Shown piece by piece: positions 33,888 through 52,300 of a stretch of 64,000 bases of DNA. Both the position numbers and the translations under genes were made by a program. The notes beneath the pieces are model-generated. The model ran no database searches and had not been told where the DNA came from. It worked only from the letters and a program-made list of their open reading frames with translations. Each line of letters starts with the position of its first letter. The first letter of the stretch is position 1. The stretch is from Chthoniobacteraceae bacterium (GTDB lineage Bacteria; Verrucomicrobiota; Verrucomicrobiia; Chthoniobacterales; Chthoniobacteraceae), in the NCBI GenBank assembly GCA_031409655.1, contig JANNXQ010000194.1:15192-79191 (forward strand), written 5' to 3'.

Positions 33888-34111
33888 TCCGTCCGTTTGA
33901 ACCGCCGCTTGAACTCCTCGAACGAAATGCCCGCCCCAGGATTGCGCTCCATTTCGTCGATGCGCTCGTCGAGCATCACCTTCAACTCGTCGGACAATTC
34001 CTCGTCGTCTCCCGGAAGCAGCGACTCCCAAAGTCTCTCGGCCAATTCCGCCCGCTCCGGCGGAGGGAGCTGTTCGGCTTTGCGGAGGAGGTCGGTGGCT
34101 TCGGCAGTCAT
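33884..34111 (-). CDS. Addiction-module antitoxin (TIGR02574-like)
   Basis: LPPPERAELAERLWESL...LDERI...GISFEE. Confidence 0.88.
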   Translation of the reverse strand: MTAEATDLLRKAEQLPPPERAELAERLWESLLPGDDEELSDELKVMLDERIDEMERNPGAGISFEEFKRRFKRTE

Positions 34112-34121
34112 GGCAGGTATT

Positions 34122-35306
34122 CTATGCGGCTTTCACCGCCGCGACAATCTTCTCCGCAGCGTCCGCGAGGTCGCTCGCACCGATGACGGCGAGACCGCTC
34201 GTGGCCAGGGTTTTCTTGCCCGCTTCGACGTTGTTGCCTTCGAGGCGCACTACGAGCGGGATGTTGAGGTGCGTTTCGCGGGCGGCCGCGAGGATGCCGT
34301 TGGCGATCACGTCGCAATCCATGATGCCGCCGAAGATGTTCACGAGGATGCCTTTCACGTTGGCGTCGCCGAGGATGATTTTGAAAGCCGCCGCGACCTG
34401 CTCCCTGGTGGCGCCGCCGCCGACGTCGAGGAAGTTCGCCGGCCGGCCGCCCGCATACTGGATGATGTCCATGGTGGACATGGCGAGGCCGGCGCCATTG
34501 ACGAGACAGGCGATGTCGCCATCGAGCCCGATGTAGTTGAGCGAAAATTCCGACGCGGCGACTTCCCGCGGATCTTCTTCACTCTTGTCGCGCAGGGCCA
34601 CGATGGTGGGCTGCCGGTAGAGCGCGTTGTCGTCGAAGTTAAACTTTGCATCGAGCGCGAGCAGGCGGCCATCGGGCGTGACGACGAGCGGGTTCACTTC
34701 GATCTGCGCACAATCGCGGGCGATGAAGAGCTGGTACATCGCGCTGAAAAGTTTGCCAGCTTGGCCGAGCAGCGGGCCGCTCAGACCGAGCGCCTTCGCG
34801 AGCTTGCGCGTCTGGAAGGCTTGCAAGCCGAGCAATGGATGCACGGGCTCGCGCATGATTTTTTCCGGCGTGTGTTCGGCCACTTCCTCGATATCCATGC
34901 CGCCCGCGGTGCTCGCGATGACGACTGGCGCGGAGCTGTTCCGATCGAGCAGGATGGCAAAGTAAAGTTCGCGGGTGATATCCACGGCCTCGGCGATGAG
35001 CACCTTGCTCACGAGTTTGCCGTCCGGTCCGGTCTGATGCGTGACGAGCGTCTGCCCGAGCATTTTCGCCGCAAAATCGCGCGCCTGCTCGGCGGTGTCG
35101 CAGATATGCACGCCGCCTTTGAAGCCGTTCTTAAAGGTGCCTTTGCCGCGTCCACCGGCGTGGATCTGCGCCTTCACCGCAATCTGGCCCGGGATGCCGC
35201 GGGCGATTTCAAAGGCTTCGTCCGCCGTGTTGGCGACGCGCCCTTTCGAGGTGGCGACGCCGAATTGCTCGAAGAGTTCGCGGGCCTGGTATTCGTGGAT
35301 GTTCAT
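34122..35306 (-). CDS. sucC: Succinyl-CoA synthetase beta subunit
   Basis: [61 protein letters not shown]. Confidence 0.97.
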
Positions 35307-35310
35307 GGAA

Positions 35311-35409
35311 GAAGTTGAAAGTCGTTGGTGGGGCGTGGAGAGCGGCCGTTGGTTGCCAAGAGCGCTCGGCAACGCGAGGAGCGGCTCTTGACCATCCACT
35401 CTCAACTTC
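35311..35409. repeat. Imperfect intergenic palindrome upstream of sucC
   Basis: GAAGTTGAAAGT ... ACTCTCAACTTC arms with an inner TTGCC...GGCAA hairpin. Confidence 0.45.
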
Positions 35410-35413
35410 CCGG

Positions 35414-35959
35414 CTACCCGCCGCCGCTGCCGACGTATTCCGCGGAGTAAGTTTCAAACTTCGCGGTCGAGCCCACAGCGGGCGGGCTCTGGACGTCGTA
35501 AACGTTGTTGCCGACAACTTCGCCGGATTGGGTGTCGTAAATCATCACGGCCTTCTTGGCCTTCGGAGAAGTCTTCTCGTTCTTGACCGTGTCCACGGCG
35601 ATGTAGCGCGGCTTCTTTTTTGCCGCAGTCCTTTTGCTGCCACTACTGCCCGAGGGGCGCCGGGCGATCCGCGCCGAGGCGATTCGACCGCGCTGAGCGG
35701 CGACCTCCCGCTGCCGCGCATCGGCTTGATGCTTGGCGATGATGTAGGTCGTGATGGCCACCACCGCACCGACGGCCGCGCCCGTGGCGATGGATTCACC
35801 GGTGCTCATGCCCGCGTGGCGGGCGATGCTGCCCGCGAGGATGCCGGCTCCGCTGCCAAAGACGGCGGCGTTTTCACCCGGCGTCATATTAGCGCAGCCA
35901 GAGGCGGCGAGGGAAACGACGGTGAGCAGAGCGGCGGATTTGAGCGTGCCAGTTTTCAT
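35414..35959 (-). CDS. Glycine-zipper lipoprotein
   Basis: Lipobox [14 protein letters not shown]...GAAVGAVV. Confidence 0.75.
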
Positions 35960-36064
35960 AGATGAGGAAGAACCTGATCTCTAGCCGCAGAGCCCCGACG
36001 GGCGCAAGAAAATGTCAGGAAAGAGTCCGCCGCTTCCCGTGCATCCTCTCCTTTTTTTGATCGA

Positions 36065-37780
36065 TCAAAAGGACGGCGGCGCTGGAGCGGCACTCGCAGC
36101 TTTCGGCGAGACGGGCACCGCCCGCGCTTTGGCCAGGAGTTCATCGAGTTGCTGCGCGCGAGCGAGTGTCGGCTCATTGGCCCGCCGCCGCGCCGCACAC
36201 GCGACCTGCACCGGGCCGAGCGCGTCGGCGAGATCTTCGGAAAACGTCTCGATCGTCCTGCGCAAGTGTTCCTCGACCTCGATCACCAAGGCCTCGCGCC
36301 GCGTGGTCGCGAAGCGGCGGAAATCCGCGAGGATCCGCCATTGCCAGAGAAAGTGCGCGATGATCGCCAGGCCGGCGATAAACGCGGTGCCGGCCAAGAC
36401 CCGGCCAAAGACGGGCAGCTCCGCGGCGGCGGAAAACGCCGTGAGCAGCACTCCGACGGCGATCGCAAATAGCGCCACCCGCAGCGTCGCGCCCGCGAGA
36501 AAGAAAAGCGCGTGCAGATGGCGATCCGTGCCCGCGTCGAGCGCGTGCCGCGCGAGCACCGACTGGAGATCGTCCCGCAAGTTCTGGCGGACGCCTTTGA
36601 AATCCGGCGGCTGCGGTCGCGGGCAATCCGCGATGGTCCGGCGGCGCTGCGTCTCGAGCTGCTCCCAGGCGAGCCGCTGCTCGGCTTCGATCGCCGCGAG
36701 CGTGGTGTCGGTCTCCGCCAGCACCGTTTCCCGCAAGGGTGTCTCCACGGTGTGCTCGAGATGCCCGCGCCACGCGCCTCCAGCGTTTAAGATCCCGGAC
36801 AGCGAGAGGTGCGGACGGAAGATTTCCTCGCCGCGTTTCTGCGCGGTCTCGAGCGTCTTCGAGAGCGACCAAAGGATGCCGCCCATTTGCCGCAGCGATT
36901 GCTCTTTGCGGTCTTCGATCAACTCATGCATCCCGGCGAGCAGCTTCCCGTCACGCGTGGCGGATTGCACGGCCTCGCGCGAGACCCCGCTGATCTCCTT
37001 CAAGATTTCCCGAGCCCGGCCGCGCGCGAAGTCCACCGGCGCCCGGCGCGAGAGGCCCTCGGCGACTTCGCGGTCGATGTATTGCTCGAGCTTTTCGATC
37101 CCCGAGGCGGCGAGGGCGGTAGGTTCACCGACGATCCGCGCGGCGAGGGCACCGCGAGTGTCGATGGGGAAGATGGGACACGCCACGCCGGGACGTTTGA
37201 GCATCGCCTGCCGCAAGGTTTTCGCGGCTTCCTCGAGCGAGCCGCCGCCGCTCCCATCGGCGATCAGCACCACGCGCTTGAGTTGCGACGGCTCGAAGCG
37301 GGCGAGGAGTTTCCACGAGCGAGCCGCATCTGGCTGGGCAGCGGAGAAGACGAAAAGGAGGAGATCCGCCGCCGTCACATACGGCGCGAGTTCCGGCGTG
37401 ATCTCGGAACGCAGGCCGATGCCGGGCGTATCCACCAGCGTGAAGTCCCGCAGGAAAAGATGCGCGTGCTGACGCTCGATCACCCCGGGCCGCAACTCGG
37501 TCCGCTGCGCATCGGTGCCGTGCCGATAGACCGTGATTTTTTCCGTCGCCGCCGGAGCATCCGTGAAATCGCGTCCAAAGAGCGCATTCAAGAGCGAAGA
37601 TTTTCCCGGCCGCCCGTCGCCCAGCGCGACGAAAAGGAACGGCTCACGCAGCCCATCTTGCAGCTCCTGCAATTCGGCGAGCGTCTCCGGCGCGGCTTGG
37701 CTCTCCTCCGCCAGACGGACGAGCGAGAAGAGCGCAGTGCCAACTTGCGCACGCAGCCGGATGTAGGCGTCGCCGAACAT
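36065..37780 (-). CDS. Bacterial dynamin-like GTPase
   Basis: FVALGDGRPGKSSLLNALFG (G1), LVDTPG (G3), helical stalk, paired hydrophobic segments near the C-terminus. Confidence 0.72.
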   Translation of the reverse strand: MFGDAYIRLRAQVGTALFSLVRLAEESQAAPETLAELQELQDGLREPFLFVALGDGRPGKSSLLNALFGRDFTDAPAATEKITVYRHGTDAQRTELRPGVIERQHAHLFLRDFTLVDTPGIGLRSEITPELAPYVTAADLLLFVFSAAQPDAARSWKLLARFEPSQLKRVVLIADGSGGGSLEEAAKTLRQAMLKRPGVACPIFPIDTRGALAARIVGEPTALAASGIEKLEQYIDREVAEGLSRRAPVDFARGRAREILKEISGVSREAVQSATRDGKLLAGMHELIEDRKEQSLRQMGGILWSLSKTLETAQKRGEEIFRPHLSLSGILNAGGAWRGHLEHTVETPLRETVLAETDTTLAAIEAEQRLAWEQLETQRRRTIADCPRPQPPDFKGVRQNLRDDLQSVLARHALDAGTDRHLHALFFLAGATLRVALFAIAVGVLLTAFSAAAELPVFGRVLAGTAFIAGLAIIAHFLWQWRILADFRRFATTRREALVIEVEEHLRRTIETFSEDLADALGPVQVACAARRRANEPTLARAQQLDELLAKARAVPVSPKAASAAPAPPSF

Positions 37781-37844
37781 GTAGGACAGTGGCTGACGTT
37801 AAAGCAGCGCACCGGGTTGCTTGTCCACGGAAGAAGTGCGGCCG

Positions 37845-38771
37845 CTACTCGGCCCGCTCCACAAAGAGCCGGCCCGCACGCCGCCGCGCGTGCGCACCGC
37901 CGGGCAGATTCACTTTCGCCCGCGCACCATCGAGCAGCGCCCGGACGCGCTCCACTTCTTCAAACCCGACATTCGGCACCGCCCGCGTGCGCAGCCAGGC
38001 GTGCAAGGTGCGGCGTTGCAGCGCGAGGGGCAGCGCCCGGAGCAGCGGCACGGCGAGTTCCGCATTGAGCGGCGGGAGCAACGCGTCGAGCGCATCGCTT
38101 TCGGCCCGCAGGATTTCCGCCGCCCGCCACACCGCGCCGCGCACTTCCCGGCCAAAGGCGCGTTCGAGTTCCGGGAGGATTTCGTGCCGGATGCGATTGC
38201 GGGTGTGGCGCGGGTTGGCGTTGGAAAGGTCCTCGTAATACGCGAGCCCATGGGCCGCGATGTAAGCGTCGATCTCGCTCCGCCAGACGCCGAGGAGCGG
38301 GCGAAAAATCTCCAACTCCACGCCCTCAATCGCGCGCTCGGAGTGCGCCGCCATTCCACCGAGTCCCGCCGAGCCCGAGCCGCGCAAGAGATTAAAAAGA
38401 AACGTCTCCACCTGATCGTCCGCATGGTGCGCCAGGAGCAGCCGCGGGCAGTGCTGCTCGGCTGCCGTGCGCGCAAAAAATGCGTAGCGCGCCTCCCGCG
38501 CCGCGGTCTCGATCGACTGCTTCCGCCGCTTCGCCCGCGCCGCCACATTCTCCCGCTTCACGACGAAAGGCAGCTTCCAGCGCTTTGCGAGCGCGCGCAC
38601 AAATTTCGCCTCCACCACGCTCTCCGCGCGCAAGCCGTGATCGAGATGGCAGACGATCAACTCCCGGTGGCCCTGCGCGACTAGCGCGTGGAGCAGCGCC
38701 ACGGAGTCACGCCCGCCGGAGACGCCGATGAGCGCGGGCTCGTCCGGGGCAGGGAGACCTACGAGCTGCAC
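37845..38771 (-). CDS. tilS: tRNA(Ile)-lysidine synthetase
   Basis: GVSGGRDS, DHGLR, AREARY, AHHADDQVET, RPLL, DLSN, RNRIR. Confidence 0.95.
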   Translation of the reverse strand: MQLVGLPAPDEPALIGVSGGRDSVALLHALVAQGHRELIVCHLDHGLRAESVVEAKFVRALAKRWKLPFVVKRENVAARAKRRKQSIETAAREARYAFFARTAAEQHCPRLLLAHHADDQVETFLFNLLRGSGSAGLGGMAAHSERAIEGVELEIFRPLLGVWRSEIDAYIAAHGLAYYEDLSNANPRHTRNRIRHEILPELERAFGREVRGAVWRAAEILRAESDALDALLPPLNAELAVPLLRALPLALQRRTLHAWLRTRAVPNVGFEEVERVRALLDGARAKVNLPGGAHARRRAGRLFVERAE

Positions 38772-38783
38772 GGGATGGCCCTG

Positions 38784-38877
38784 GTTCGATGTTCAGTGTT
38801 CGACGTTCGATGTTCGATGTTCCGAACCGAAATTGCGGAAACATCGAACGTCGAACATCGAACATCGAACATCGAAC
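38784..38877. repeat. Inverted heptamer array (GTTCGAT)x6 / (ATCGAAC)x5
   Basis: Two tandem heptamer arms in opposite orientation around a short spacer, between serS and tilS. Confidence 0.9.
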
Positions 38878-38901
38878 GAGCCTCCAGAAAGCGCGGGTCC
38901 G

Positions 38902-40173
38902 TCACCCGATCCGATCCATCCCGAAGGCCGCACGGAGCGGCTCTGGGATGAGCACGCTGCCATCCTCCTGCTGATAGGTCTCCAGCAGCGCCACGTAGAG
39001 CCGCGGCAGGGCGGTGCCCGAACCATTCAGGGTGTGGCAGAATTGATTTTTCCCGTCCTCGCCTTTGAAGCGCATCGCCATCCGGCGCGCTTGGAAGTCG
39101 CCGAAGTTTGAGCAGCTCGAGACTTCGAGATACGCATTCTGGCCGGGCGCCCAGACCTCGATGTCATAGGTCTTTGTCGCACCAAAGCCGAGGTCGCCGG
39201 TGCATAGCTCGATGACGCGATAGTGCAGCCCGAGGAGTTGCAGCACTTTCTCCGCATCGGCAGTCAGCGCGTCGAGTTCCGCGAAGCTGGTTTCCGGCGT
39301 CGTGATTTTCACGAGCTCCACTTTGTCGAACTGATGCGTGCGGATGAGCCCGCGCGTGCCGAGGCCGGCGGCGCCCGCTTCGCGCCGGAAGCACGGCGTG
39401 TAAGCGGTGTAGCGGATCGGGAGCTGCTCGAGCCGCAGGATTTCCTCGCGGTGCAAATTCGTCACCGGCACCTCGGCCGTCGGCACGAGGTAGAGATCGT
39501 CGTCTTTGCAGCGATACTGCTGCTCTTCAAATTTCGGGAGCTGCGTGGTGCCGACGAGCGACTCGGATTTCACGAGCAGTGGCGGGCTGACCTCGGCGTA
39601 GCCGTGTTCGCGGGTGTGCAGATCGAGGAGGAAATTGATGAGCGTCCGCAGGAGTCGCGCGCCGGCGCCGGTGTAGAGCGCAAAGGCGCTACCGGTGATC
39701 TTCGTCGCCCGCTCAAAGTCAAAGAGGCCGAGCTTTTCGCCCAGCTCGATGTGGCTCTTCGGCGCAAAGGTGAACGCCGGCTTTTCGCCCCAGGTCCGGA
39801 GCACTGGATTATCCTCCGCCGACGTGCCCACCGGGCAGCCCTCATGCGGCAGATTTGGCACATTGAGCAAGAGCGTGCGCTGGCCGGCCTCGAGCTGCCG
39901 CGCCGCATCTTCGAGCACCGCGAGCTGCTCGCCGAACGAACGCACCTCGGCCTCAATCGCCGCCGTGTCCTCGCCCTTGCCCTTTTTTGCCCCGATCTCC
40001 TTGCTGATGCGTTTGCGATCCGCCTGGAGCTGCTGAAACTGCGTCTCCGCCGCGCGCCGCTTCGTGTCACAGGCGAGGATTTCATCGACCGCCGACGCCA
40101 GCTTCGGGTCCCGTGTGGCGAGACGCTGTTTCACGAGGTCGGGATTTTCGCGGATGAGCCGGATGTCAAGCAT
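38902..40173 (-). CDS. serS: Serine--tRNA ligase
   Basis: [55 protein letters not shown]. Confidence 0.97.
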
Positions 40174-40313
40174 GGGGCGGGGAGACTAGTGGCCGGGCGC
40201 ACGCCGGGCAAGCAGAGCCATCAAGGCCGTCAATTTACCGACCAGCATACCCACCGCAGCGCTACCTATACCTCCCGTCATCCGCACCATCCAAGCCGAT
40301 CAAGATACATGGG

Positions 40314-41492
40314 TCACTTCACCACCTCGCTCTGCCGCAACGCGGCGCGGAATTGTTTGTAGAGCGCGTCGAGGCTGGGGCGGATTTGGTGGGTGCGTTG
40401 GGACCACTCCAGTTTCGGCTTGGCAGCCATCACGGCGGCGCTGTTGTTTGCCTGGCTCTTGAGTTCGGCGCGCTGGGATTCTTCGCGGGCAAATTGTGGC
40501 CAGCTCATCTTGTAGTTGCGCCGGGCTTCCAGCGCCTGGCTGGTCACGCCGGTGCGCGCCTGCGCCTCCACGGCGCGGAAACCGGCCCGCGCCAGCGTCC
40601 GGTCGCGTTCATCCAGCGCGGCGATCATCGTGTTGCAGAGTTGCTCGCCGATCTTGTAAGCCTCCGGGCTCGCCTTGGGTTTCTTCGCCGCCTCGTCCAG
40701 CAGGTCTTCGCGCAGGTAAGTCACATTCTGCCGGATGTCCGGCGGCACCCCCGCATCCAACGGCGCCAGCACTCACGCGCTCGCGTTCGGGGCCTGCTGC
40801 GAGAGGGTTTCGAGGAGGGGCTGGTTGGGATTAATAGGAACAGCGGACGGTGTTGACGGGTTCGCAGTGACCGACTGTTGCTGAGGCCCGATTTCCTTGA
40901 TGCGGACGTTGCGGAACTGGACCGCTCCTTTCCAATGGCATTGAAAACCAACGTAACCGCGGGTGTTGCCACTCCCCGCGAATGTATTTACCAATTGGTC
41001 GTTGAGTCGCACCGAGTATTCTTGGCCGACGACGGTTATTTCGAGGTCATTCCAATCACCAAGGCGCTGCGGAACACTCGAAGGATCCTTTTTTCCGTAA
41101 ATGGCGCCTGTCGGTCTATCGTCCGTCTGTTTCCCGTAGATCTGCACCTTGTAGCTACCGCGTTCGACAGCAACGGGATCGTTTTCCAACGCAGGAATGC
41201 GCAAGTATATGCCTGATTTCGATGGCGCTTCACCATGCTTGAATTCGAGTTTGAGAACGAAGTCTGCAAATTCTTTTTTTCCATACCAATAAACTGCAGC
41301 AGGTTTATCAGGAGCGTATGTAGTCGCAATGCCACCGCTAATGTTCATGCCGCCGTTGCCACATTGCTTCCAACCGTCAGTGTGTTCTCGATCCAACAAA
41401 GGAATGAACCCCGGCTCGACGGCACTCGAATCAGGGAGCAGCGCAGTGCAGCAAAGTGTGGCGAGGAGGAGATGGCGAACGATGGGTGTCAT
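40314..41492 (-). CDS. Exported DUF1080 (3-keto-disaccharide hydrolase-like) domain + shared C-terminal domain X; in-frame TGA at 40773-40775; frame is open upstream to ATG 41870
   Basis: Signal MTPIVRHLLLATLCC; GFIPLLD...GW, FADFVLKLEFK, SGIYLR, TGAIYG, GDWNDLEI, GYVGFQCH, VQFRNVRIKE; then NASA*VLAPLD...REDLLDE...SWPQFARE. Confidence 0.78.
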
Positions 41493-41609
41493 GGGAGTTG
41501 GTAGTAAGGTCGAGCGCGTAACGGAATTCACACTTCTGGCGATGGCCCTCAAAACGGTGGTCAGGCCAACACCAATCTTCGATCCCCATCCGCCCTTGCG
41601 CTGAATGCA

Positions 41610-41831
41610 AACGCCAACGGCGTTCCATCTTCCAGCCCAGGGTTGCGAGGCACGAGCTACCCTGGGTTCCCATCCGCGCGCGGGGCCAACTCTGAAGGAG
41701 TTGCAGCCAGCACGGCGTACTGTGGCAGATGAAACCCTTTCAGGGTTTGCCGGGTTTGTCGGAGGGCACCCAGGGTAGGCGCTCGTGCCTCGCGCCAACC
41801 CTGGGCTGATGGATGGAACGCCGTTGGCGTT
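41610..41831. repeat. 222-bp REPIN-like palindromic element, copy 1
   Basis: AACGCCAACGGCGTTCCATC..CAGCCCAGGGTTG ... CAACCCTGGGCTG..GATGGAACGCCGTTGGCGTT with nested inner hairpins (AACCCTTTCAGGGTT). Confidence 0.9.
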
Positions 41832-41893
41832 CACGGCCGGATCAACAATGGCAGACTGGAAGGAGTTCATGGGAATCGTTTGGCTTTGGGCGT

Positions 41894-43204
41894 TCACTTT
41901 GTCGGCGCGCCTTGCCGGAGGGCTTCGCGGAATTGGGCGTAGAGGGTGTCGAGGGTTTTGCGGAGGGTGGCGGTGCGCTGGGACCATTCGAGTTTGGGGC
42001 GTTCGGCCATCACGTTGGCGCCGGCGATTGCCTGGCTCTTGAGTTCGGCGCGCTGGGATTCTTCGCGGGCAAATTGCGGCCAACTCATCTTGTTGTTGCG
42101 CCGGGCTTCCAGCGCCTGGCTGGTCACGCCGGTGCGCGCCTGCGCCTCCACGGCGCGGAAGCCGGCGCGGGCGAGGGTTTGGTTGCGTTCTTCGAGGGCG
42201 GCCAGGACGGTCTGGCAGAGCTGGGCGGCGAGGGTGTAGGCGGCGGCGCTGGCCTTGGGTTGCTGTTTGCCTTCGTCCAGCAAGTCCTCGCGGAGGAAGG
42301 TCAGGTTCTGCCGGATGTCGCCCGGCACCGCCTGCTCCAGCGGAGCCAGCGTCCACTCGATGGCATTCGGCGCCTGGTCTTTGAGGACTTCGATGCGGGG
42401 TTGGTTGGGGTCGGTTTGGATGGTGGTTGGACCGGCAGTCGATAATGATGCAGCGGTGGTAGCAGTCGAACTCTGCGTAATTCGCTCCATACGTGTTCCG
42501 GTTATTCGTTCTTTGCTGTCCCAGCTTTTGGCACCCACGAAGGACGAAAATGTCTGATCAAATGTTAGGACCGTCTTGAGTTTCTTGTTCGCGAACTCTT
42601 CGAGAGTGACTTTGTTCGGCCCGGTGATTCGCGAAGCTGATGCGGCCGGCTCGCCATCCACCGTGATAACTGTGGCCATACCGTCGCTGAACCGGACTTC
42701 TTTCCACTTTGGCTTGTCGGGATTGCTCCATGACCATTTGTAGCCGAACAACGCCTCCTGCAAGGTCCGGGGATTCTGCGCGCAAGCCCGTTGCGTCGGA
42801 CCAATAATCGCGAAGAGCGCCAGGAAAATAAAGTGACGGATGACTGATCCCGAGTCGGCACCGCAAATGAAGCGAACGCCAACGGCGTTGCATCGACCAG
42901 CCCAGGGTTGCGAGGCACGAGCTACCCTGGGTTTCCGTTCATGAAAGGAATCAACCCTGAAAGGGTTGCAGCCAAGGCGCTCCGAGTTGGTTGATGAAAC
43001 CCTTTCAGGGTTTGCGGATGGTTTCGGAGCGGACCCAGGGTAGGCGCTCGTGCCTCGCGCCAACCCTGGGCTGGTCGATGGAACGCCGTTGGCGTTCGCT
43101 GCGCGTCTCGAACTCCCGTCGTTCGATGCGTTCCACGACTTCTCTTGGTCGGTTGCGTTGTCTGTATGCGCTGCGTTCTCAAAGGCGAATCGATACGGGT
43201 TCAT
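41894..43204 (-). CDS. Membrane-anchored/exported protein: REPIN-derived leader, hydrophobic segment, small beta-rich domain, shared C-terminal domain X
   Basis: 436-aa open frame; RHFIFLALFAIIG hydrophobic stretch; Thr/Ser linker; NAIEWTLAPLE...[16 protein letters not shown]...SWPQFARE...LYAQFR. Confidence 0.78.
   Translation of the reverse strand: MNPYRFAFENAAHTDNATDQEKSWNASNDGSSRRAANANGVPSTSPGLARGTSAYPGSAPKPSANPERVSSTNSERLGCNPFRVDSFHERKPRVARASQPWAGRCNAVGVRFICGADSGSVIRHFIFLALFAIIGPTQRACAQNPRTLQEALFGYKWSWSNPDKPKWKEVRFSDGMATVITVDGEPAASASRITGPNKVTLEEFANKKLKTVLTFDQTFSSFVGAKSWDSKERITGTRMERITQSSTATTAASLSTAGPTTIQTDPNQPRIEVLKDQAPNAIEWTLAPLEQAVPGDIRQNLTFLREDLLDEGKQQPKASAAAYTLAAQLCQTVLAALEERNQTLARAGFRAVEAQARTGVTSQALEARRNNKMSWPQFAREESQRAELKSQAIAGANVMAERPKLEWSQRTATLRKTLDTLYAQFREALRQGAPTK
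42875..43096. repeat. 222-bp REPIN-like palindromic element, copy 2
   Basis: Same arms and length as copy 1; terminal inverted repeat extends to 40 bp (42871-42910 / 43061-43100) with one mismatch. Confidence 0.9.
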
Positions 43205-43226
43205 AGAATGGTGTGGGTCGGAGTCC

Positions 43227-45095
43227 TTACTTTGATGCGGGATTTTGCCGCATTGCGGCGCGGAATTGGGCGTAGAGGTTGTCGAGGCCTTTGCTGAGCT
43301 GGCTGGTGCGCTGGGACCATTCGAGTTTCGGGCGTTCGGCCATGATGGCGGCGTTGTGGATGGCCTGGCTTTTGAGTTCGGCGCGCTGGGAAGTTTCGCG
43401 GGCGTATTGGGGCCAGCTCATCATGTAGTTGCGGCGGGCTTCGAGGGACTGGCTGGTGACGCCGGTGCGCGCCGCGGCCTTCACTCCGCGGAAGCCGGCG
43501 CGGGCTTGGGTCTGCGTGCGTTCGTCGAGGATGGCGAGGAGGTTTTGGCAGAGCTGCGCGCCGAGACGGTAGGCGTCGGCGCTGGCGGCGGGCTGACGCC
43601 GCGACTCATCGGCGAGGTCTTCGCGCAGGAAGGTGAGGTTTTGGCGGATGTCGGCGGGGACGCTCTGGTCGAGTGGGGCGAGGACCCAGGCGGTGATGTT
43701 CGGGATCTGTCGGGAGAAGGTGGGGAGCAGGCTCGGCGCGGGGGCGGGGGTCGCGGGTGGCAGGATTGAGGGCGGAGCTGGGGCCTGGACGACGGGCATC
43801 GGCGCAACAAGCGGCGGGATCGGAGTCGGGGTGGCAGCCGGTGGCGGAGCTACGGGAGGAGCAGAAGTTTGGGTGACGCCAGGATTCGGGGCAGCAAGCG
43901 GGAGGAGCGGTGTCTGGGCGCTGGCGATGGTAACGGGCGTGGGCTTTGGCTCTGGACGCGGTTCCGGGGAGGTAGGAGTTGGTTGCAACAGTGTGCCGCT
44001 CTCCGCTTCAAAGTCCGGCGGTTCAACCATGCTCTTTTTCAAGAGGACGCCACCTTCAAATACGACAAGGAGCACAACCGCGGTGACGACGACGGTGATA
44101 ACAATGGCAATGCTTGGCGAGAGGCGCGGCGCCAAGGACGGGGTGCCGAGCGGCCCACCTTCGCCCCCGGATGTTTGGGGCACGACGGAGCGTGTCCCTC
44201 CTGGCGGGGTGTTGCGGATGCGGTCCACATCGGTCTTCATCTCGCTGACGCGCTGGTAGCGGCGGGCGGGCTCCTGCTGGAGCGCGCGCACGACGACTTC
44301 GTCGATGCGGGCATCGACGGGCACTTTCTCCGAGGGCAGCGCGAAGATGCCCTGCGGGCGCTGGCCGGTGAGCATTTCGTAGAGCATGACTCCGAGGGCG
44401 TAGATGTCGGCGCGCTGGTCGGCTTCGCCGGTGCGCTGCTCGGGGGCCATGTAGTCGGGCGTGCCCATGACCATCGCGGTCTGGGTGAGGCCGCCGGTGT
44501 GGCCGTGTGCGGGGCGGGCGAGGCCGAAGTCGGCGAGCTTGGCGCGGCCGTCCTTGGTGAGGAGGATATTGGCGGGCTTGATGTCGCGGTGGATGACGCC
44601 CTGGCTGTGGGCAAAAGCTAGGGCGTCGCAGATCTGGCCGGTGATGGCGAGGGCTTGCTTCGGATTGAGGCCGGGGCCGTGCAGGACGCGGCTGAGGTCG
44701 GTGCCGGCGACGTATTCCATGACGAAGAAGAAGTGGCCTTCGCTGGTCTGGCCGAAGTCATAGACGGCGACGATGCCGGGATGCTGGAGCTGGGCGAGGG
44801 TGCGCGCTTCGCGTTGGAAGCGGGCGATGAAATCCTCGTCGGCGGCGATCTCGGCGGGGAGGAGCTTGATGGCGACGGGGCGATCGAGCGTGGACTGTCA
44901 GCCTTTGTACACCGCGCCCATGCCGCCGTGGCCGAGCAGGCTCTCAATCCGGTATTGCGGGAGCAACGCAGCGAGCACGTCGGGCGCGGGCGGCGTCCAG
45001 GCGGCGGCGCCGACGGAGGGCTGCGCGGTGTTCAAGGCGCGGGCGAGGAGTTCGCCGGGGTCGAGGCCGTGGAGTTCGGGATCAGGGTCGGGCAT
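43227..45095 (-). CDS. Membrane Ser/Thr (Hanks-type) protein kinase with extracytoplasmic domain X; in-frame TGA at 44898-44900
   Basis: [25 protein letters not shown]...RFQREA...HPGIV...[40 protein letters not shown] helix; Pro-rich linker; AWVLAPLD...domain X. Confidence 0.88.
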
Positions 45096-45174
45096 GGCGC
45101 GGATTTGTTTCACCCATTGCTAGGGAATCCGGAGGCGGAGGTTGCAATTGAGCGCACATTTTTTCCGCGCCGGC

Positions 45175-45903
45175 TCAGACGCAGCCGAGCAGTTCGGCGA
45201 GTTCGCCTTTGATTTCCTCGGGCGAATCGTCGGCGATCGTGGCGGAGACCTGCTCGAAGATGATCTCGCGCCACCGCTTGCGGAGGCGAAAGACGTCACT
45301 TTTCACCGTGCCGAGCGGACGAGCGAGCGTGGCGGCGACTTCCTCGTAGCGCCGCTCCGCATCGGGGCCGAAGCCGAGGAACGGGCGCAGCGCGGTGAAG
45401 GTGTCCGCTTTTCCCTGCGCGCCGTATTCCGCGCCGAGGAGCGTGAGCGCGTGATCGAGGATGGTGAGCGCCCAGCGCCGCTGGAAGAGACGATCTGGCG
45501 AGAGGTCGTCGCGCGGCTCGGCGGCATACCGCTGCTCGGCCTGCGCGGAATCGAAGCTCGTGAGCACGGCGGCACCGCGCTTTTGCGCCATGGCGCGATC
45601 ATGCTCGTCGCTGAGAAATCGGCGCGCGCAGGTGAGCAGGAAGGTGCGCAGTTTGCCCTTGCCGGCATCGGCCTTGGCGAGCGTCTGCTTTTCGAGTAGC
45701 CACGCGAAGAAGCCCTGCGTGAGATCTTCAGCATCGTGCGGCGCGCGGCCCGACCGCCGGATGTAGGCGTAGATCGGATACCAGTACGCTTCGCACAGCG
45801 CGGTGAGCGCGGTCATCGCCGCGGTGTCGTCGGCGCCGATGGCCCGCTGCACGAGGCTCCATCGCGTGGTCTGGAAGGAATGCGGAGCGGGAGGCGGGGG
45901 CAT
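45175..45903 (-). CDS. ECF RNA polymerase sigma factor (PVC kinase-associated type)
   Basis: FQTTRWSLV, LCEAYWYPIYAYIRR, DAEDLTQGFF, KGKLRTFLL, region-4 YEEVAATL..PLGTVKSDVFRLR. Confidence 0.92.
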   Translation of the reverse strand: MPPPPAPHSFQTTRWSLVQRAIGADDTAAMTALTALCEAYWYPIYAYIRRSGRAPHDAEDLTQGFFAWLLEKQTLAKADAGKGKLRTFLLTCARRFLSDEHDRAMAQKRGAAVLTSFDSAQAEQRYAAEPRDDLSPDRLFQRRWALTILDHALTLLGAEYGAQGKADTFTALRPFLGFGPDAERRYEEVAATLARPLGTVKSDVFRLRKRWREIIFEQVSATIADDSPEEIKGELAELLGCV

Positions 45904-46016
45904 TTGGGTAACGCGGGGAGTTCCGATGTACGCGAAGCGTGGGGAGTATGGATCGGGAAAGCGAGCCCCGGATTGGAGCTTGGAGTCTCCGCAGTCGGTT
46001 CGTGTAGGGTTGCTGG

Positions 46017-46991
46017 ATGCCGCAGCCTTCCACTTCCCGCCCGAAGATCGTCGTCCTCGATGGCTACACGCTGAACCCCGGGGATCTCGACTGGCGCGGG
46101 CTGGAGGCGATCGGCGAGGTCACGGTGCATGAGCGCACGCCGCTGGAGACCACGGTCGCGCGGGCGGCGGGGGCGGCCATCGTGCTGACGAACAAGGCGC
46201 CCGTGAATGCCGAGGCCATCGCAGCACTTCCCGACCTGCGCTACATCGGCGTGCTCGCGACGGGGTACAATGTCGTGGATGGCGCGGCGGCGAAGGCGCG
46301 CGGGATCGTGGTCGCCAATGTGCCGGGCTACGGCACGCCGGCCGTGGCGCAGCACGTCTTTGCACTCATCCTGGAGCTGGCGCAGCGGGCGGGGCATCAC
46401 GCGGAAACGGTGCGCGCCGGGCGCTGGGTGGCGAGTGCGGACTTTTGCTACTGGGACTTCCCGCTGGTGGAGCTGGCGGGACGGACGCTCGGGATCGTGG
46501 GCTTCGGGGCGATCGGCCAGGCCGTGGCGCGGATCGGGCTGGCCTTTGGGATGAAAGTGATCGCCAGCACCCGCACGCCGCGGACGGTGGAGGGCGTGGA
46601 ATTCATCTCGATGGACGAGGTCTTCCGCCGGGCCGATGTGGTGACTTTACACTGCCCGCTCACGCCGGAGACGCAGGGCCTCGTGAATGCCGCCCGGCTC
46701 GCGCAAATGAAGCCGGGGGCTTTCCTGATAAACACGGGCCGCGGCCCGCTCGTGGTCGAGTGCGATCTCGCGGCAGCGCTCGAGGCCGGGCGCATCGCGG
46801 GTGCCGGGCTGGACGTGCTTTCCGTCGAGCCGCCGCAGGCCGACAATCCGCTCCTGACGGCCAGGAATTGTCTCATCACCCCGCACATCGCCTGGGCCAT
46901 GCAGGCCGCGCGGGCGCGGCTCATGGAGATCGCGGTGGCGAATGTGCGGGCCTTCCTGGCAGGCACCCCGGTCCATGTGGTCAATGGGTGA
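46017..46991 (+). CDS. D-2-hydroxyacid (glycerate-type) dehydrogenase
   Basis: LDGYTLNPGDL, LATGYNVVD, GFGAIG, LHCPLT, INTGRG, LDVLSVEPP, TPHIAW. Confidence 0.93.
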   Translation: MPQPSTSRPKIVVLDGYTLNPGDLDWRGLEAIGEVTVHERTPLETTVARAAGAAIVLTNKAPVNAEAIAALPDLRYIGVLATGYNVVDGAAAKARGIVVANVPGYGTPAVAQHVFALILELAQRAGHHAETVRAGRWVASADFCYWDFPLVELAGRTLGIVGFGAIGQAVARIGLAFGMKVIASTRTPRTVEGVEFISMDEVFRRADVVTLHCPLTPETQGLVNAARLAQMKPGAFLINTGRGPLVVECDLAAALEAGRIAGAGLDVLSVEPPQADNPLLTARNCLITPHIAWAMQAARARLMEIAVANVRAFLAGTPVHVVNG

Positions 46992-47002
46992 CTTGGAGCC
47001 GG

Positions 47003-47018
47003 TGGCACGCGATTCGCT
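47003..47018 (+). promoter_or_regulatory. Candidate sigma-54 (-24/-12) promoter
   Basis: TGGCACGCGATTCGCT: GG-N10-GC spacing with a TGGCACG core, intergenic, about 110 nt before the 47127 start. Confidence 0.5.
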
Positions 47019-47126
47019 AGCCCCGCTGAAAAAATATCGGGCATTCGGCATCGTCGAGGCTACCTTGTGCTGCCAAATCAACAGCGCTGCCTCCCCAGCG
47101 GCAGCGCCAAACCAAAAACCCGGTCT

Positions 47127-47969
47127 ATGATTCGCAAGAGACTTCTCCGCTCGTCGGCGATCCTCGCTTGTACCATCGCTAGCGTCGCCTCCCCAGACAC
47201 CGCCCGCTCCCAGTCCGAACTCGCCTCCATCTCGTATGGCGATATGCGGACGTTGCGGCTGGATGTGGGCCGCTACCCTTGGAAGCGCGCAATCGTGACG
47301 ACGACATTCTGGGTGGGCGAGGAGCCGACGGCGAACAACCCGATGCCGAATCACTTCAGCGCCTGGGATAAAAACTGGCGCCGGAACTACGGCGGCACCG
47401 ACCACCCGTCGGAGCGCGCGAATCTTCTCCCCGCGAAATTCACCCCGAAGCAAAACCCTTTCTACATCGCGCTGCCATATAACGATTGCACCATCGAAGG
47501 CTACAAACCGGAGGCTGCGAGCGTGATCCCCTGGTTCAAGGATGGACCGCTGGCGGGCTCGAAACGGTCCGTGCTCAAGGGCCGCTGGGTGGCCATCCGC
47601 AGTCGGCATCGCGTGGCCTATGCGCAGTGGGAAGATGCAGGCCCTTTCCGCACGGATCACTGGCAGTACGTTTTTGGAAATGAACGCCCGAAGCCGAACC
47701 TGAACAAAGGCGCCGGCCTCGATATCTCGCCCGCGGTGCGCGATTTCCTCGGCGTCGGCGATACTTCCGTGACCGATTGGCGATTCGTGGATTTCGCGGA
47801 CGTGCCGCCCGGACCGTGGTCGGATCACGGGGACAACAACACCTTCGTGCAGCAGAAACGCGGCAGCGCCAACGCGCGCAATCACCTCACGGTGCTGGCG
47901 GAAAGGTATCTCCCGGTGATCATGGATTTGGGACGCGGCGGGCTGCCGTTGGGTTCCGGCGGGCAGTGA
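47127..47969 (+). CDS. Exported conserved protein, probable RlpA/expansin-like double-psi beta-barrel
   Basis: Signal peptide; AQWEDAGPF ... GLDISPAVRDFLG parallels the RlpA motifs INDRGPF ... IDLSxxAAxxLG. Confidence 0.6.
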   Translation: MIRKRLLRSSAILACTIASVASPDTARSQSELASISYGDMRTLRLDVGRYPWKRAIVTTTFWVGEEPTANNPMPNHFSAWDKNWRRNYGGTDHPSERANLLPAKFTPKQNPFYIALPYNDCTIEGYKPEAASVIPWFKDGPLAGSKRSVLKGRWVAIRSRHRVAYAQWEDAGPFRTDHWQYVFGNERPKPNLNKGAGLDISPAVRDFLGVGDTSVTDWRFVDFADVPPGPWSDHGDNNTFVQQKRGSANARNHLTVLAERYLPVIMDLGRGGLPLGSGGQ

Positions 47970-48740
47970 ATGCGGATGCGCTTCTTGTTCCCCGCAGCAT
48001 TGCTGCTCGCGCTCCGCGGAGCTTCCGCTGCGGAGCCGCAGACTGCTGAAAGCCTTGGCTTCCGGCTCGTCTGGTCGGAGGAATTCACCGGCCTCACGCT
48101 CGACGCCACCCGCTGGAGTCCCGCCTTCGCGCCAGGCGTGCATCCGCTGGGCTGCAATGGGGAGCGGCAAAGTTACGCGCCTGAGAGTGCCTTCATCCGG
48201 GATGGTCTGCTCGTCCTCCGAGCGGAGCGAAAGGCGCGGGAAGGTGTGCCTTTCACGAGCGGGATGGTGGCGTCGCACGGGAAATTTAGCCAGCGCTACG
48301 GGTGCTTCGAGGCGCGGGTGAAATTGCCGCGAGGGCGCGGGCTGTGGCCGGCGTTTTGGCTGCTGCCGGAGAACCGTGTGTGGCCGCCGGAGATCGACAT
48401 CATGGAGCACAAGGGCCGGCTGCCCAACCACGTCTGGCTCACGCTCCACCTGCCGCAAGCTGGCACCTGGCAACCGAAGTCCGACTCGAAGGAATGGATC
48501 GGCCCTGATTTCACCGCCGACTTTCACACCTTTGCCGTCGAGTGGCGGCCCGGCAAGATGCGCTGGTTTGTGGATGGCGTGGAACGTCACGCCTTCCTCC
48601 ACCCCACGCCGGATCTGCCGATGTACCTCATCCTGAATCTCGCCGTGGGCGGACACTTCGATGGCGACCCGGACGCAGCGACGCCCTTCCCGAGCGAGAT
48701 GCTGGTCGATTGGGTGCGCGTTTACACGCCCGCCAAGTAG
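47970..48740 (+). CDS. Glycoside hydrolase family 16
   Basis: LVWSEEF, GLWPAFWLL, EIDIME catalytic motif, FHTFAVEW, ILNLAVGG, VDWVRVY. Confidence 0.93.
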   Translation: MRMRFLFPAALLLALRGASAAEPQTAESLGFRLVWSEEFTGLTLDATRWSPAFAPGVHPLGCNGERQSYAPESAFIRDGLLVLRAERKAREGVPFTSGMVASHGKFSQRYGCFEARVKLPRGRGLWPAFWLLPENRVWPPEIDIMEHKGRLPNHVWLTLHLPQAGTWQPKSDSKEWIGPDFTADFHTFAVEWRPGKMRWFVDGVERHAFLHPTPDLPMYLILNLAVGGHFDGDPDAATPFPSEMLVDWVRVYTPAK

Positions 48741-48788
48741 CCTCTGCCGGAGTGCTGGCCCCGCATCTGCTGATTCACGGGGTTCACC

Positions 48789-49277
48789 GTGTCCACCACT
48801 TCACCCATGACCGCGCTCGCGGGCATCCACATCTTCGCCGGTCTGCGCGACGAGGTGCTTGCCTCGCTCGCCCTGCGCTGCACGGAAATCCGCGCCGAGC
48901 AGGGCGACATGATCGTCGAGGAAAACGTGGTGGGCCGGGAAATCTACCTCATCGCCGAAGGCAGCGTGCGCATCGTGAGCCAGCTCGGGCTGCCGGGGGA
49001 AACGGTCCTGGCGGAACTTGGGGCGGGGGAGTTTTTCGGGGAGATGTCCGTCATCGAATGTTCGCGCCGCTCGGCCTCCGGCATCGCGACGGAGCCAAGC
49101 GTCCTCTACGCGCTTTCCAACACCGAGATCCACGCACTCTTCAAGCGCTGGCCGGATCAATTTTCCATCCTCATCCTGAATATCTCGCGCGACCTCTGCC
49201 GCCGACTGCGCGCGATGAACAAGCTCTTCGCCGCGGGGCAGGGCGCGAATTTGCTGGGCTGCGGCCCGAGCGTCTAG
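48789..49277 (+). CDS. Stand-alone cyclic nucleotide-binding domain protein
   Basis: IYLIAEGSVRI, GEFFGEMS, RRSAS. Confidence 0.85.
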   Translation: MSTTSPMTALAGIHIFAGLRDEVLASLALRCTEIRAEQGDMIVEENVVGREIYLIAEGSVRIVSQLGLPGETVLAELGAGEFFGEMSVIECSRRSASGIATEPSVLYALSNTEIHALFKRWPDQFSILILNISRDLCRRLRAMNKLFAAGQGANLLGCGPSV

Positions 49278-49361
49278 CGGGGAGCGTCGCCGACTGCGGG
49301 GCGTAAAATCGGACGGTGACGGCTAAGAGCCGAGTGGATACACGGATTCTCCCCGCACTCC

Positions 49362-52300
49362 ATGAAGCCCACACCCGCCCTCGCTTTCGCCCTCGCTGCC
49401 TGCGCTGCCCTCCAACCGCTGACCGTCATGGCCGAGCCAGAGTGGCTCTGGATTTCCAAGACCGGGCAAAAGGACGAGCGCGTGACTTTCCGGAAGAAGT
49501 TCGCGCTCCCGGCGGGCGAACTGAAGACCGCAACGTTCCAATACACCTGCGACAACGGTGCGGAGGCCTTCCTCAACGGCAAAGCGCTGCCGGCGAATCC
49601 CGACTGGCAGAAACCCACCACCGCGGAGGTGAAAAAGCAGCTCCTCGGCGGCGGCAATGAACTGGTCATCAAAGCGACGAACAAGTCGGGCTCCGCCGGG
49701 CTCGTCGCGAAGCTCGTCGTCGAGACCGCGGACCTGAAGCGCGTGATCGTCGAGACGGATGCGACGTGGGAGGTGACACCAACGGGCGCCGAAACCTGGA
49801 AGCCCGCGGTGAGTGTCGGCAAGTATGGCGGTGCGCCTTGGGGGAAGGCGCTCGACGGCGGAAAGACGGCGGCGAAGGCGGGCGGAAAGCCCAAGCGCGA
49901 AGTCTCGGAGGTGGCCATCGACGGCCAGGACATCGTCACCTTGCCCGGCTTCCAGGTCGAGCGGCTCTACGTGGTGCCGAAGGACACGCAAGGCTCCTGG
50001 GTCGCACTCACGCCGGATGCAAAAGGGCGCATCATCGCGTGCGATCAATACGGCGGGCTCTATCGGCTCTCCGTCCCGCCTGCGGGCACGAAAGGGGTGG
50101 CGCAGGTCGAGAAGCTGAAGACGGAAATCGCCGGTGCGCACGGGCTGCTCTACGCCTTCGACAGCCTCTACTTCATGAAAAACGAGCAGGCCGGCACGCA
50201 CGGGCTCTACCGCCTGCGCGACACGGATGGGGACGATCAATTCGACGAAGTGAAACTGCTCCGCGAGATCAAGGGCGGCGGTGAGCACGGGCCGCACTCC
50301 ATCACCCTGAGCCCCGACGGGAAGAGCCTCTTCATTAACTGCGGAAATCACACCCAACTCCCGGAAAACATGGAGGTGAGCCGCGCCGCCCGGGCGTGGG
50401 GCGAAGATCACGTCATCGAGCGCATGTGGGACGCAAATGGCCACGCCCGCGGCATCCTCGCGCCCGGCGGTTACATCTGCAAAACGGACCCGGAGGGCAA
50501 AAAGTTTGAGCTCTTCTGCTCCGGCTTCCGCAATCAGTTCGACGCCGCCTTCAACGACCTCGGCGACCTCTTTACTTACGACTCCGACATGGAGTGGGAC
50601 ATCGGTTCACCGTGGTATCGCCCCACGCGGATCGACCATTGCGTGAGCGGCGGCGATTACGGCTGGCGCTCCGGCGCTGGCATGTGGCCTCCCTATTTTC
50701 CGGACTGCCTGCCTTCCGCGCTCGACATCGGTCCCGGTAGTCCGACCGGCGTGGGCAGCGGCGTGGGCGCGAAGTTCCCCGAGAAATATCAGCGCGCGAT
50801 TTTCGCCGCGGACTGGACCTACGGCACGATGTACGCGATCCACGCCGAGCCCGTCGGTGCGACCTACAAAGTCACGAAGGAGGAATTCGTGAGTGGCCGC
50901 CCGCTGCCGCTCACTGACCTTTTCATTCATCCGAAAGACGGCGCGATGTACTTCGCCATCGGCGGCCGCCGCAATCAATCCGCGCTCTATCGCGTGACCT
51001 ACACCGGCACGGAATCCACCGCGCCTGCGGCGAAACGCGAACCCACTGTCGAGGCCAAGCTGCGGATCGAACTGGAAGCCCTGCACCTCGAAGGCACCGG
51101 CCCGGAAGCCATCGACAAAGCGCTGCCCAAGCTTGGGCACCCCGACCGTTTCGTCCGCTACGCCGCGCGCGTGGCTCTGGAGCGCCAGCCCGCCGCGCAG
51201 TGGGCGGAGAAAGCGCTCGCGATGCGCGACCCGAACGCGACCATCGAGACCGTGGTCGGCCTTGCCCGCGTCGGCGATCCCGCGCTGCGCGATCGGCTTC
51301 TCGAAAAGCTCGGGGAAATCGCCGAAGCGAATCTGACCCGCGATCAGGCGCTCGGCGCCGTGCGCGCGTTGCAGCTCATCATCACGCGCCTCGGCAAACC
51401 CGAAGGCGAAATGCTCACCGGCGTACTCACACATCTCGACCAAGTCTATCCCACGCCCGATCAGACGATGAACCGCGAGCTTTGCCAGACCCTCGTCGCC
51501 CTCGGCTCCACGAGCGTGGTCTCGAAGACCGTGCAGCTCATGGCCACCGCCGCGGATGACTTTGAAGACATCGCCACCGACAGCCTGCTCAAACGCAACG
51601 ACCGCTACGCCTCGGCGGTGAATGCAGCCACCGCGAGCCGCCCGAATCGCCAGCAAATCTGGCTCGCCTACTGCCTGCGCGAAGCCACCGTTGGCTGGAC
51701 GCCCGAGCTCCACCGGAGCTTCTTCTCGTGGTTCCCGCGCACCGGAAAATGGAAGGGCGGAAACAGCTTCCGCGGCTTCCTCAACAACATCCGCAAGGAG
51801 GCGCTGGAAAATGTGGCCGACACCACGGAACGCACCGCACTCGATACGCTGAGCGCGCAACTCGACGTGGCGCCGATCGCCAACGCCCGCCCCGCCCAAG
51901 GCCCCGGTCGCAACTGGTCAGTGGACGAGGTAGTCGCGCTGACGAAGGACGGCTTCCACGGCCGCGACTTCGAGAACGGCAAGGCCATGTATGCCACGAC
52001 GATGTGCGCGACGTGCCACCGCTTTGCCGGCGACGGCGGCAGCATCGGCCCCGATCTCACGGGCTCCGGCGCGCGCTATACCATGCGCGATTTCATGGAA
52101 AACATCGTCACCCCGAGCAAGGTCATCTCGGATCAATACGAGTCGCACGAGATCACGAAAAAGGACGGCAGCACCGTGATCGGCCGCGTGATTGTCGAAG
52201 AGAACGGGAAAGTCTTCGTCGCGATCAACCCCTTCGCCCCGCAGGACACCCTGGCGATCGACGAGAAAGAGATCGCGAGCCGCAAGCCTTACGCCATCTC

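Follow-up and report, generated by a model that had tools for sequence, protein, structure and literature searches.

The 64,000-nucleotide stretch analysed here (the window), which lies on contig C194 of a 6.85-Mb verrucomicrobial genome, carries on its minus strand four co-oriented genes encoding, in this order, an extracytoplasmic function (ECF)-type sigma factor, a Hanks-type receptor kinase with one transmembrane (TM) helix, and two further proteins, gene 2 and gene 3. The kinase and the products of genes 2 and 3 all terminate in the same unnamed domain, referred to here as X. Two stop codons interrupt this locus, which represents a gene set that recurs in some soil and freshwater Verrucomicrobia and comprises the sigma factor, the kinase and one to six predicted exported partners sharing X. 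Docking of X to X may build a split receptor that feeds the ECF sigma factor, a reading to which we give about an even chance. Taken together, the architecture of the gene set is solid, whereas docking is unproven.

The locus and its shared domain

The following features define the locus.

45175..45903, minus strand: ECF-type sigma factor, 242 amino acids (aa); Pfam Sigma70_r2, E 2.8e-6, over the cut-off
43227..45095, minus strand: Hanks-type receptor kinase with kinase domain (Pfam Pkinase), TM helix, Pro-rich stalk and X; broken by a nonsense codon
44898..44900, minus strand: TGA at kinase codon 66, upstream of the VAIK lysine; Trp in several close homologues
44037..44123, minus strand: predicted TM helix of the kinase, residues 325-353 (hydropathy scan)
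43230..43736, minus strand: X, kinase copy, 169 aa with helix 1 counted
41894..43204, minus strand: gene 2 (candidate start) with in-frame palindrome, hydrophobic export or anchor segment, beta-barrel and X
41897..42403, minus strand: X, gene 2 copy
40314..41492, minus strand: gene 3 with signal peptide, DUF1080 and X; broken by a nonsense codon
40896..41411, minus strand: DUF1080 / 3-keto-disaccharide hydrolase-like domain of gene 3; PF06439, E 1.5e-27; PDB 3h3l, 3s5q, 3imm
40773..40775, minus strand: TGA where X of gene 3 should have its near-invariant Trp
40317..40823, minus strand: X, gene 3 copy, cut short beyond helix 1

A preliminary description of this DNA, made from the letters alone, had listed four co-oriented genes with an ECF sigma factor and a Hanks kinase bearing a TM helix and a Pro-rich stalk, and both Pfam and hydropathy analysis bear this out. 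The kinase, read through its nonsense codon, matches Pkinase with an E value of 1.7e-49 and contains the GxGGMG, VAIK, HRDIKP and DFG motifs. The sigma factor keeps the DAED motif in the context HDAEDLTQGFF; its matches to Sigma70 r4_2 and to NCBIfam sigma70-ECF (TIGR02937) remain below the cut-off. As judged from the gene order, an anti-sigma gene is absent between sigma factor and kinase. Genes 2 and 3 encode hydrophobic N-terminal segments. The small beta-rich module ascribed to gene 2 is predicted to be an eight-stranded barrel, and the DUF1080-like assignment of gene 3 was correct. Compared with 3h3l, the gene 3 domain has K for E (YKVQ versus PEYQ) and CH for DH, at positions that vary among 32 partner DUF1080 domains.

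The three copies of X align over 153 columns without internal gaps, with 73% and 67% identity to the kinase copy, and match each other in tblastn searches with E values of 1e-64 to 1e-70. This agrees with the earlier account of a common, indel-free domain spanning 462 nucleotides from the Trp position to the stop. Its length of 153 aa, however, needs revision, as comparison with homologues places the beginning of X, helix 1, about 14-16 residues before the Trp and thus gives about 165-169 aa. Likewise, the Trp codon said to open each copy is present in the first two copies, but is TGA in the third. No further copy was detected in the 6.85-Mb genome, also when a broad profile was employed.

The expectation that X has no named family was confirmed for Pfam, NCBIfam, PHROGs and PADLOC, where neither the window copies nor 24 diverse members yielded a match at the curated cut-off. 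Moreover, comparison with PDB sequence profiles gave nothing significant, Foldseek searches of the X model against PDB and BFVD returned nothing at E <= 0.001, and the ESM Atlas contained no usable match to X; for a stand-alone relative the best value was 0.78. The AlphaFold2 (AF2) model of X (pLDDT 83.7) is all helical (residues 3-18, 30-47, 53-91, 95-99 and 108-163), and X is predicted to form a four-helix bundle, with helices 3 and 4 prolonged as a long hairpin that ends in a subtype-specific tip. Coevolving pairs fit both the four-helix base and the long hairpin of helices 3 and 4. Within the window subtype no part of X is better conserved than the tip, yet its sequence varies from subtype to subtype, and the monomer model is least confident there. 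All 224 full-length copies share one Cys and the Trp of the SWPQ motif. An inter-chain disulfide formed by this Cys was considered, but the residue sits on the hydrophobic heptad of helix 3 and is therefore probably buried. In six orthologous comparisons the ratio of nonsynonymous to synonymous divergence of X is 0.15-0.31, indicating purifying selection in the kinase and the partner role alike; the row for the divergent subtype X' (see below) was left out because of off-frame coordinates, and the DUF1080 row because of saturation.

At 50% clustering, 283 representatives match X. All 28 titled loci belong to Verrucomicrobiota, and those nearest to the window to Chthoniobacteraceae. The distribution of the system is patchy: it is present in 20 of 151 genomes of the family, in none of the three genomes of the same genus, and in 2 of 401 genomes sampled across the phylum. 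A broader profile detects relatives of X in 43 genomes out of 401 in the order and in 11 out of 401 in the class. Many of these relatives are small proteins composed of a signal peptide and X, some without the hairpin tip. Among 240 proteins, X is located at the C-terminus in 169, at the N-terminus in 45, in the middle in 6, and alone or as a fragment in 20. Signal peptide-X genes in L017 and L025 are embedded in cargo that by eye resembles that of mobile elements or prophages (restriction-like, ligase-like).

In line with the forecast that loci of sigma factor, kinase-X and X proteins with variable modules would recur, at least one partner-X gene adjoins the kinase at 20 of 23 distinct kinase-X loci, with a maximum of six (L012). 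The three loci without a partner are L015 and L080, both at contig ends, and L090. The half-domain locus L091 and the duplicates L178 and L193 are omitted from this count, and several of the loci are close kin rather than independent cases. In 17 of 22 kinase-X proteins, the region between TM helix and X consists of just a stalk of 64-101 aa (24-40% Pro). The remaining five have additional parts; in L022, L126 and L127 these include module types found on partners: a kinase-X-FGE fusion (L022), a kinase with AbfB, barrel and X' (L126), and a kinase with four barrels and X' (L127). The latter two loci are complete X' operons with open frames (L126 4596-12796 in G453; L127 3917-9336 in G441). L091 encodes a kinase-FGE-DUF1080-half X protein; the first half of X only, followed by another domain, is found in L049/L091 and L076/L095. 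In L134 (5172-8399, G528) an X'-type exported protein adjoins a kinase devoid of X, and the same genome contains a window-type operon (L004).

The modules carried by partners comprise DUF1080, FGE-sulfatase, LRR, laminin G, C-type lectin, CBM4/9, BNR, Kelch and the barrel, as well as PF06283, PF14100, PF01120 and PF00722, which we take to be ThuA, PmoA-like, fucosidase and GH16, respectively. Within the window genome 8 of 18 related sigma factors adjoin a kinase, and X is confined to the locus described here; of the four other sigma-linked kinases tested, three have WD40, RCC1 or FGE-sulfatase domains of their own. Of 13 homologous sigma factors, eight have exactly DAED, two have EAED or DAAE, and three have no match.

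Proposed docking and its alternatives

We propose that X-to-X docking would attach the interchangeable binding domains of the predicted exported partners to the bare kinase. Binding of ligands, which may mostly be glycans or envelope material, to the partner modules would cluster or dimerise the kinases and so activate them, and the activated kinase would phosphorylate the neighbouring sigma factor. Our confidence, as inferred for the single steps, is highest for the periplasmic location of X and decreases from there through binding of X to X, activation by ligand-induced clustering and phosphorylation of the sigma factor to the glycan or envelope nature of the ligands. Activation of the sigma factor by phosphorylation is suggested by analogy with PknS/EcfK and with the kinase-linked ECF groups.

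The proposal draws on the recurrence of the gene set, on the bare ectodomain of most of its kinases, on the fused forms, on the variety of partner modules, on the purifying selection and the tip conservation of X, and on the matching of X within genomes. Three divergent subtypes exist, namely the window type, the type of genome G458, and X', and each is present on both the kinase and the partners of a genome. The X copies of the G458 kinase and partner, located on two contigs, are 72% alike and 38-41% identical to window X. Within the X' operons of G453 and G441 the kinase and partner copies are 63-75% identical, as compared to 15-19% with window X; profiles of X' and window X are nevertheless aligned by hhalign with a probability of 75% (E 2.5e-5). 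The X' of either kinase is closer to the partners of its own genome (69-75%) than to the other kinase (67%), and among seven X' copies seven columns are fixed by genome and none by role. The kinase X of L022 nests among partner copies in a tree of X, which is a quick version with long branches.

Between the window and L001 the synonymous divergence (dS) is 0.125 for kinase X and 0.16 for gene 2 X, but reaches 0.43 in the kinase domain and 0.72 in the sigma factor, and the N-terminal modules of gene 2 differ between the two loci. The conserved X DNA at the gene ends appears to serve as a recombination anchor through which modules have been swapped. A further-reaching reading, to which we give somewhat less than an even chance, is a plug-and-play receptor, in which the input of a bare Hanks kinase would be set by exported modules with matching X, subtype and tip of X would act as an insulating address code, and heads would be gained, lost and exchanged via the X DNA, leaving kinase and sigma factor untouched.

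Several observations weigh against docking. Loci of the Prosthecobacter type show no matching specific to the locus: identity between the X of a kinase and that of its own partners is just about 50%, the two roles form separate clades, and the own partners often rank no higher than foreign ones (ranks 2 to 39). Genes 2 and 3 share an identical tract of 66 nucleotides and low synonymous divergence at the tip, a sign of gene conversion. The matching of subtypes fits docking pairs, but duplication and gene conversion predict it too. Moreover, in a coevolution analysis (422 sequences; effective number, Meff, 228) the top pairs fit contacts within one chain, and the possible between-chain pairs are limited to weak alpha4-alpha4 pairs with z under 4. 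A complex prediction for kinase X and gene 2 X scored 0.02 against a mark of 0.32, from alignments of 15 and 42 rows and with controls that did not fold; it provides evidence neither way.

In addition, the preliminary description had held that single occurrence of X elsewhere would speak against docking, and X does occur in genomes without kinase-X. Of ten X-bearing genomes, which were picked for the lack of an adjacent kinase-X and are mostly incomplete, eight have no kinase-X anywhere, among them a one-contig genome listed as 96% complete (G486/G552), which encodes a single stand-alone X. Stand-alone proteins with signal peptide and X are likewise numerous across the order. As kinase-X is absent from whole assemblies that contain X, the domain has a use independent of the kinase, for which either self-association or attachment to a shared target in the envelope would be suitable. 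The early proposal of swappable docking modules is therefore sustained in part: recurrence, matched subtypes and fused module versions agree with it, the occurrence of X without kinase-X does not, and docking itself remains a proposal. Finally, the window sigma factor keeps DAED, unlike the ECF43 sigma factors with proven phospho-activation. It is thus not ECF43-like, and phospho-activation remains an analogy.

Among the alternatives, X may serve all its carriers as an anchor or for targeting. Each protein would then independently bind the same third component, be it an envelope polymer, a lipid or an outer-membrane protein, and the proteins would be co-localised without X-X contact. We consider this fairly unlikely. 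In its favour, X can stand by itself or be joined to either terminus of other modules and is present in genomes without kinase-X, the conserved positions across the X superfamily are mainly located in the bundle core and at Arg, Trp and Tyr residues, and some partner modules stem from enzyme families that could simply need anchoring. The kinase, however, is already anchored in the membrane, with X as its sole folded outer domain in 17 of 22 cases, and a common target gives no reason for three subtypes shared by kinase and partners, unless duplication alone does so.

X could also be the sensor itself, a four-helix ligand-binding domain of the kind present in some histidine kinases. The partners would then be induced target genes, or soluble decoys competing with the kinase for its ligand or keeping it from dimerising. 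The fold matches of the X model, obtained with VIA (best Z 10.2, generic helical bundles), include TorS (Z 9.4, root-mean-square deviation (rmsd) 11.0, 160 aligned residues), NarQ (Z 8.3, rmsd 3.5, 104 aligned residues), HK9 (Z 8.2) and LytS-N (Z 7.7), and the hairpin tip has invariant polar residues. Furthermore, the available text on PknS reports that its periplasmic region restrains autophosphorylation (PMC13147305), and partners could thus be inhibitors. Yet Z values of 7.7-9.4 are in the range reached by any bundle, amid ion-channel helices and designed bundles and with the negative Foldseek result given above, and a sensor role leaves unexplained why kinases gain partner modules as fusions while retaining X. 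We regard this explanation as quite improbable.

That X is mainly a passive tail left by tandem duplication and gene conversion, its DNA a cassette junction at which exported modules are shuffled, with no functional link to the kinase, would account for the exchange of X DNA as a unit joined to differing N-terminal modules, for the patchy distribution and for the broken copies in the window and in L002, L044 and L045, but is very unlikely given the purifying selection on X in kinase and partners, the residues invariant over 224 copies, the confident fold, and kinase and partner clades that stay separate across species.

The window copy and its palindromic elements

In the window copy itself, both nonsense codons replace Trp codons; at kinase codon 66, L002 and L004 have TGG. 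Both TGAs are present in Logan contigs of the sequencing runs X1, X2 and X3, with no differing letter at either site. These three runs originate from one study and possibly include the source sample. All runs containing the stretch are freshwater sediment metagenomes of a single study, and no RNA runs are listed among them. As both stops are found in independent assemblies, an assembly error was rejected.

Recoding of TGA as Trp was likewise rejected. At the Trp positions of 148 orthologues from one same-genus genome (54,457 codons), 0 of 808 codons are TGA in the window genome, and a stop of any kind occurs in just two of the orthologues, close to where the alignment begins. Moreover, TGA terminates 2520 of 4852 long open reading frames (ORFs), including three of the four genes of the locus, a tRNA with a TCA anticodon was not found in the genome, and among 133 distinct X matches no other genome has a stop at the X Trp. 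Although each stop replaces a Trp codon and both recur in independent assemblies, a window copy kept active by reading both TGAs as Trp, through recoding or programmed read-through, is hardly credible in view of these counts.

Thus, with two TGG-to-TGA changes present in independent assemblies and TGA not recoded, the window copy of the system is likely dead or switched off. A restart of the kinase at the next ATG (44720) would miss the kinase N-lobe, and gene 3 as encoded would yield a DUF1080 protein without most of X. At homologous loci the kinase frame is open; intact examples of the system are L004, L005, L006, L012, L126 and L127. The preliminary description had spoken of a "repaired kinase", and had overlooked the stop in gene 3 and the likely inactivity of the copy.

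Three further features concern genes 2 and 3.

42470..42778, minus strand: unnamed 103-aa eight-stranded beta-barrel of gene 2; AF2 pLDDT 92.8
42871..43100, no strand assigned: 230-bp REPIN-like palindrome, in frame within the 5' part of gene 2; z -17.3
41607..41832, no strand assigned: second copy of the palindrome, upstream of the gene 3 ATG

The predicted fold of the barrel is lipocalin/streptavidin-like, with TP0435 as the best natural match (VIA Z 9.3, rmsd 2.6, 87 residues); Pfam contains no match. It is also repeated inside some kinase ectodomains. The barrel family, about 100 aa long with the pattern WxW...F..DG...W...G.R, has 74 matches among the sequences compared, on partners and in kinase ectodomains; examples are window 42470-42778, L127 5992-7548, L126 9790-10083 and L024 5505-5801.

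The sole in-frame ATG 5' of the hydrophobic segment of gene 2 is located at 43204. With this start, the palindrome at 42871-43100 lies in frame within the N-terminus of the protein. Palindromes at the same place were observed in L001 (8568-8791) and L002 (8603-8831), where they likewise occupy the 5' end of an open partner-gene frame. In all three genes translation appears to run through the element before reaching the hydrophobic segment, and the element is a possible coding palindrome. Matches to it are distributed over 13 contigs, and copies elsewhere lie mostly outside long ORFs. Half-elements at C102:1551-1800 and 2328-2428 flank a Y1 (RAYT-type) transposase (PF01797) at 1941-2282; the palindrome is hence a dispersed element with halves flanking a Y1 transposase, as defines a REPIN of a RAYT. 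The genome contains 13 matches to PF01797, some of which fall within ORFs of 934 and 1374 aa.

The four-gene locus is flanked by what we take, from the sequence, to be serS on one side and a predicted dehydrogenase gene on the other. A short palindrome of ACATCGA repeats at 38786-38880, presumably between a tilS-like gene and serS, has many matches in genomes of the same genus. No Rfam match was obtained within 34000-52000, no sigma-70-type promoter match within the locus, and the plasmid search gave no match.

Precedents and meaning

In the ECF groups ECF59, ECF61, ECF62 and ECF217 a Hanks kinase is encoded at position +1 and an anti-sigma factor is lacking; the ECF62 kinases possess one TM helix. 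The groups are described as 100% Planctomycetes, and their kinases carry fused sensor domains, WD40 for example (PMC7826278, in the portion available). They keep a DAED-like motif (PMC8999054, likewise in part). Compared by description, the window sigma factor resembles them in that it adjoins a kinase, lacks an anti-sigma factor and keeps DAED. Its host, however, is verrucomicrobial, and the accessible text on these groups describes no shared domain on separate exported partners.

In the ECF43 group, PknS of Xanthomonas citri phosphorylates EcfK (PMC13147305), and EcfP/PknT of Vibrio parahaemolyticus are known to us second-hand (PMC8999054). According to the excerpt of the latter paper, ECF43 sigma factors have no DAED and are switched on by phosphorylation at that site. 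Common to both systems is a receptor kinase adjoining an ECF sigma factor, whose direct phosphorylation is shown in ECF43. In contrast, DAED is not replaced by a Thr-containing motif in the window sigma factor, and PknS, as far as the available text goes, has periplasmic tetratricopeptide repeats and neither X nor X-bearing partners.

The nearest precedent for a separate periplasmic kinase activator is, by analogy, TagR-PpkA of the H1 type VI secretion system (T6SS) of Pseudomonas aeruginosa, where periplasmic TagR, with its FGE-sulfatase-like domain, is proposed to dimerise the kinase PpkA (PMC13713981, seen in part). Like kinase-X, PpkA with TagR/TagQ combines a one-TM Hanks kinase and a disordered stalk with separate periplasmic activators, and FGE-sulfatase is a common module of X partners. 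The system differs by its one fixed co-receptor, which acts via unlike domains, and by its output, Fha1 and T6SS assembly instead of a sigma factor; in the text at hand there is neither a shared domain nor an array of interchangeable partners.

A helical bundle outside the membrane, as predicted for X, is also found in TorS-TorT, LytS-XylFII and NarQ, and the TorS and LytS structures matched by the X model are complexes with soluble binding proteins. These are, however, histidine-kinase systems in which the soluble partner has no copy of the receptor domain, and the likeness is at the level of generic bundles. In homotypic adaptor domains and in cohesin-dockerin pairs, a small module is reused to plug variable domains into a scaffold; X has no Pfam sequence match to these families, and the comparison is one of analogy.

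Sigma-kinase pairs are already known, whereas an unnamed domain shared by the kinase and variable exported partners, with matched subtypes, is apparently new: no paper describing the shared domain or the operon was found in a search that misses most subscription journals. For sensing by the ECF-linked Hanks kinases of the Planctomycetes-Verrucomicrobia-Chlamydiae group, these loci provide a small and defined case, with one outer domain that is shared with the partners. Should X not dock to X, it remains an unnamed envelope domain, present in 43 of the 401 genomes sampled from the order. If it does dock, the specificity of a receptor would be encoded by separate, swappable genes, and the divergent subtypes would be candidate orthogonal docking pairs.

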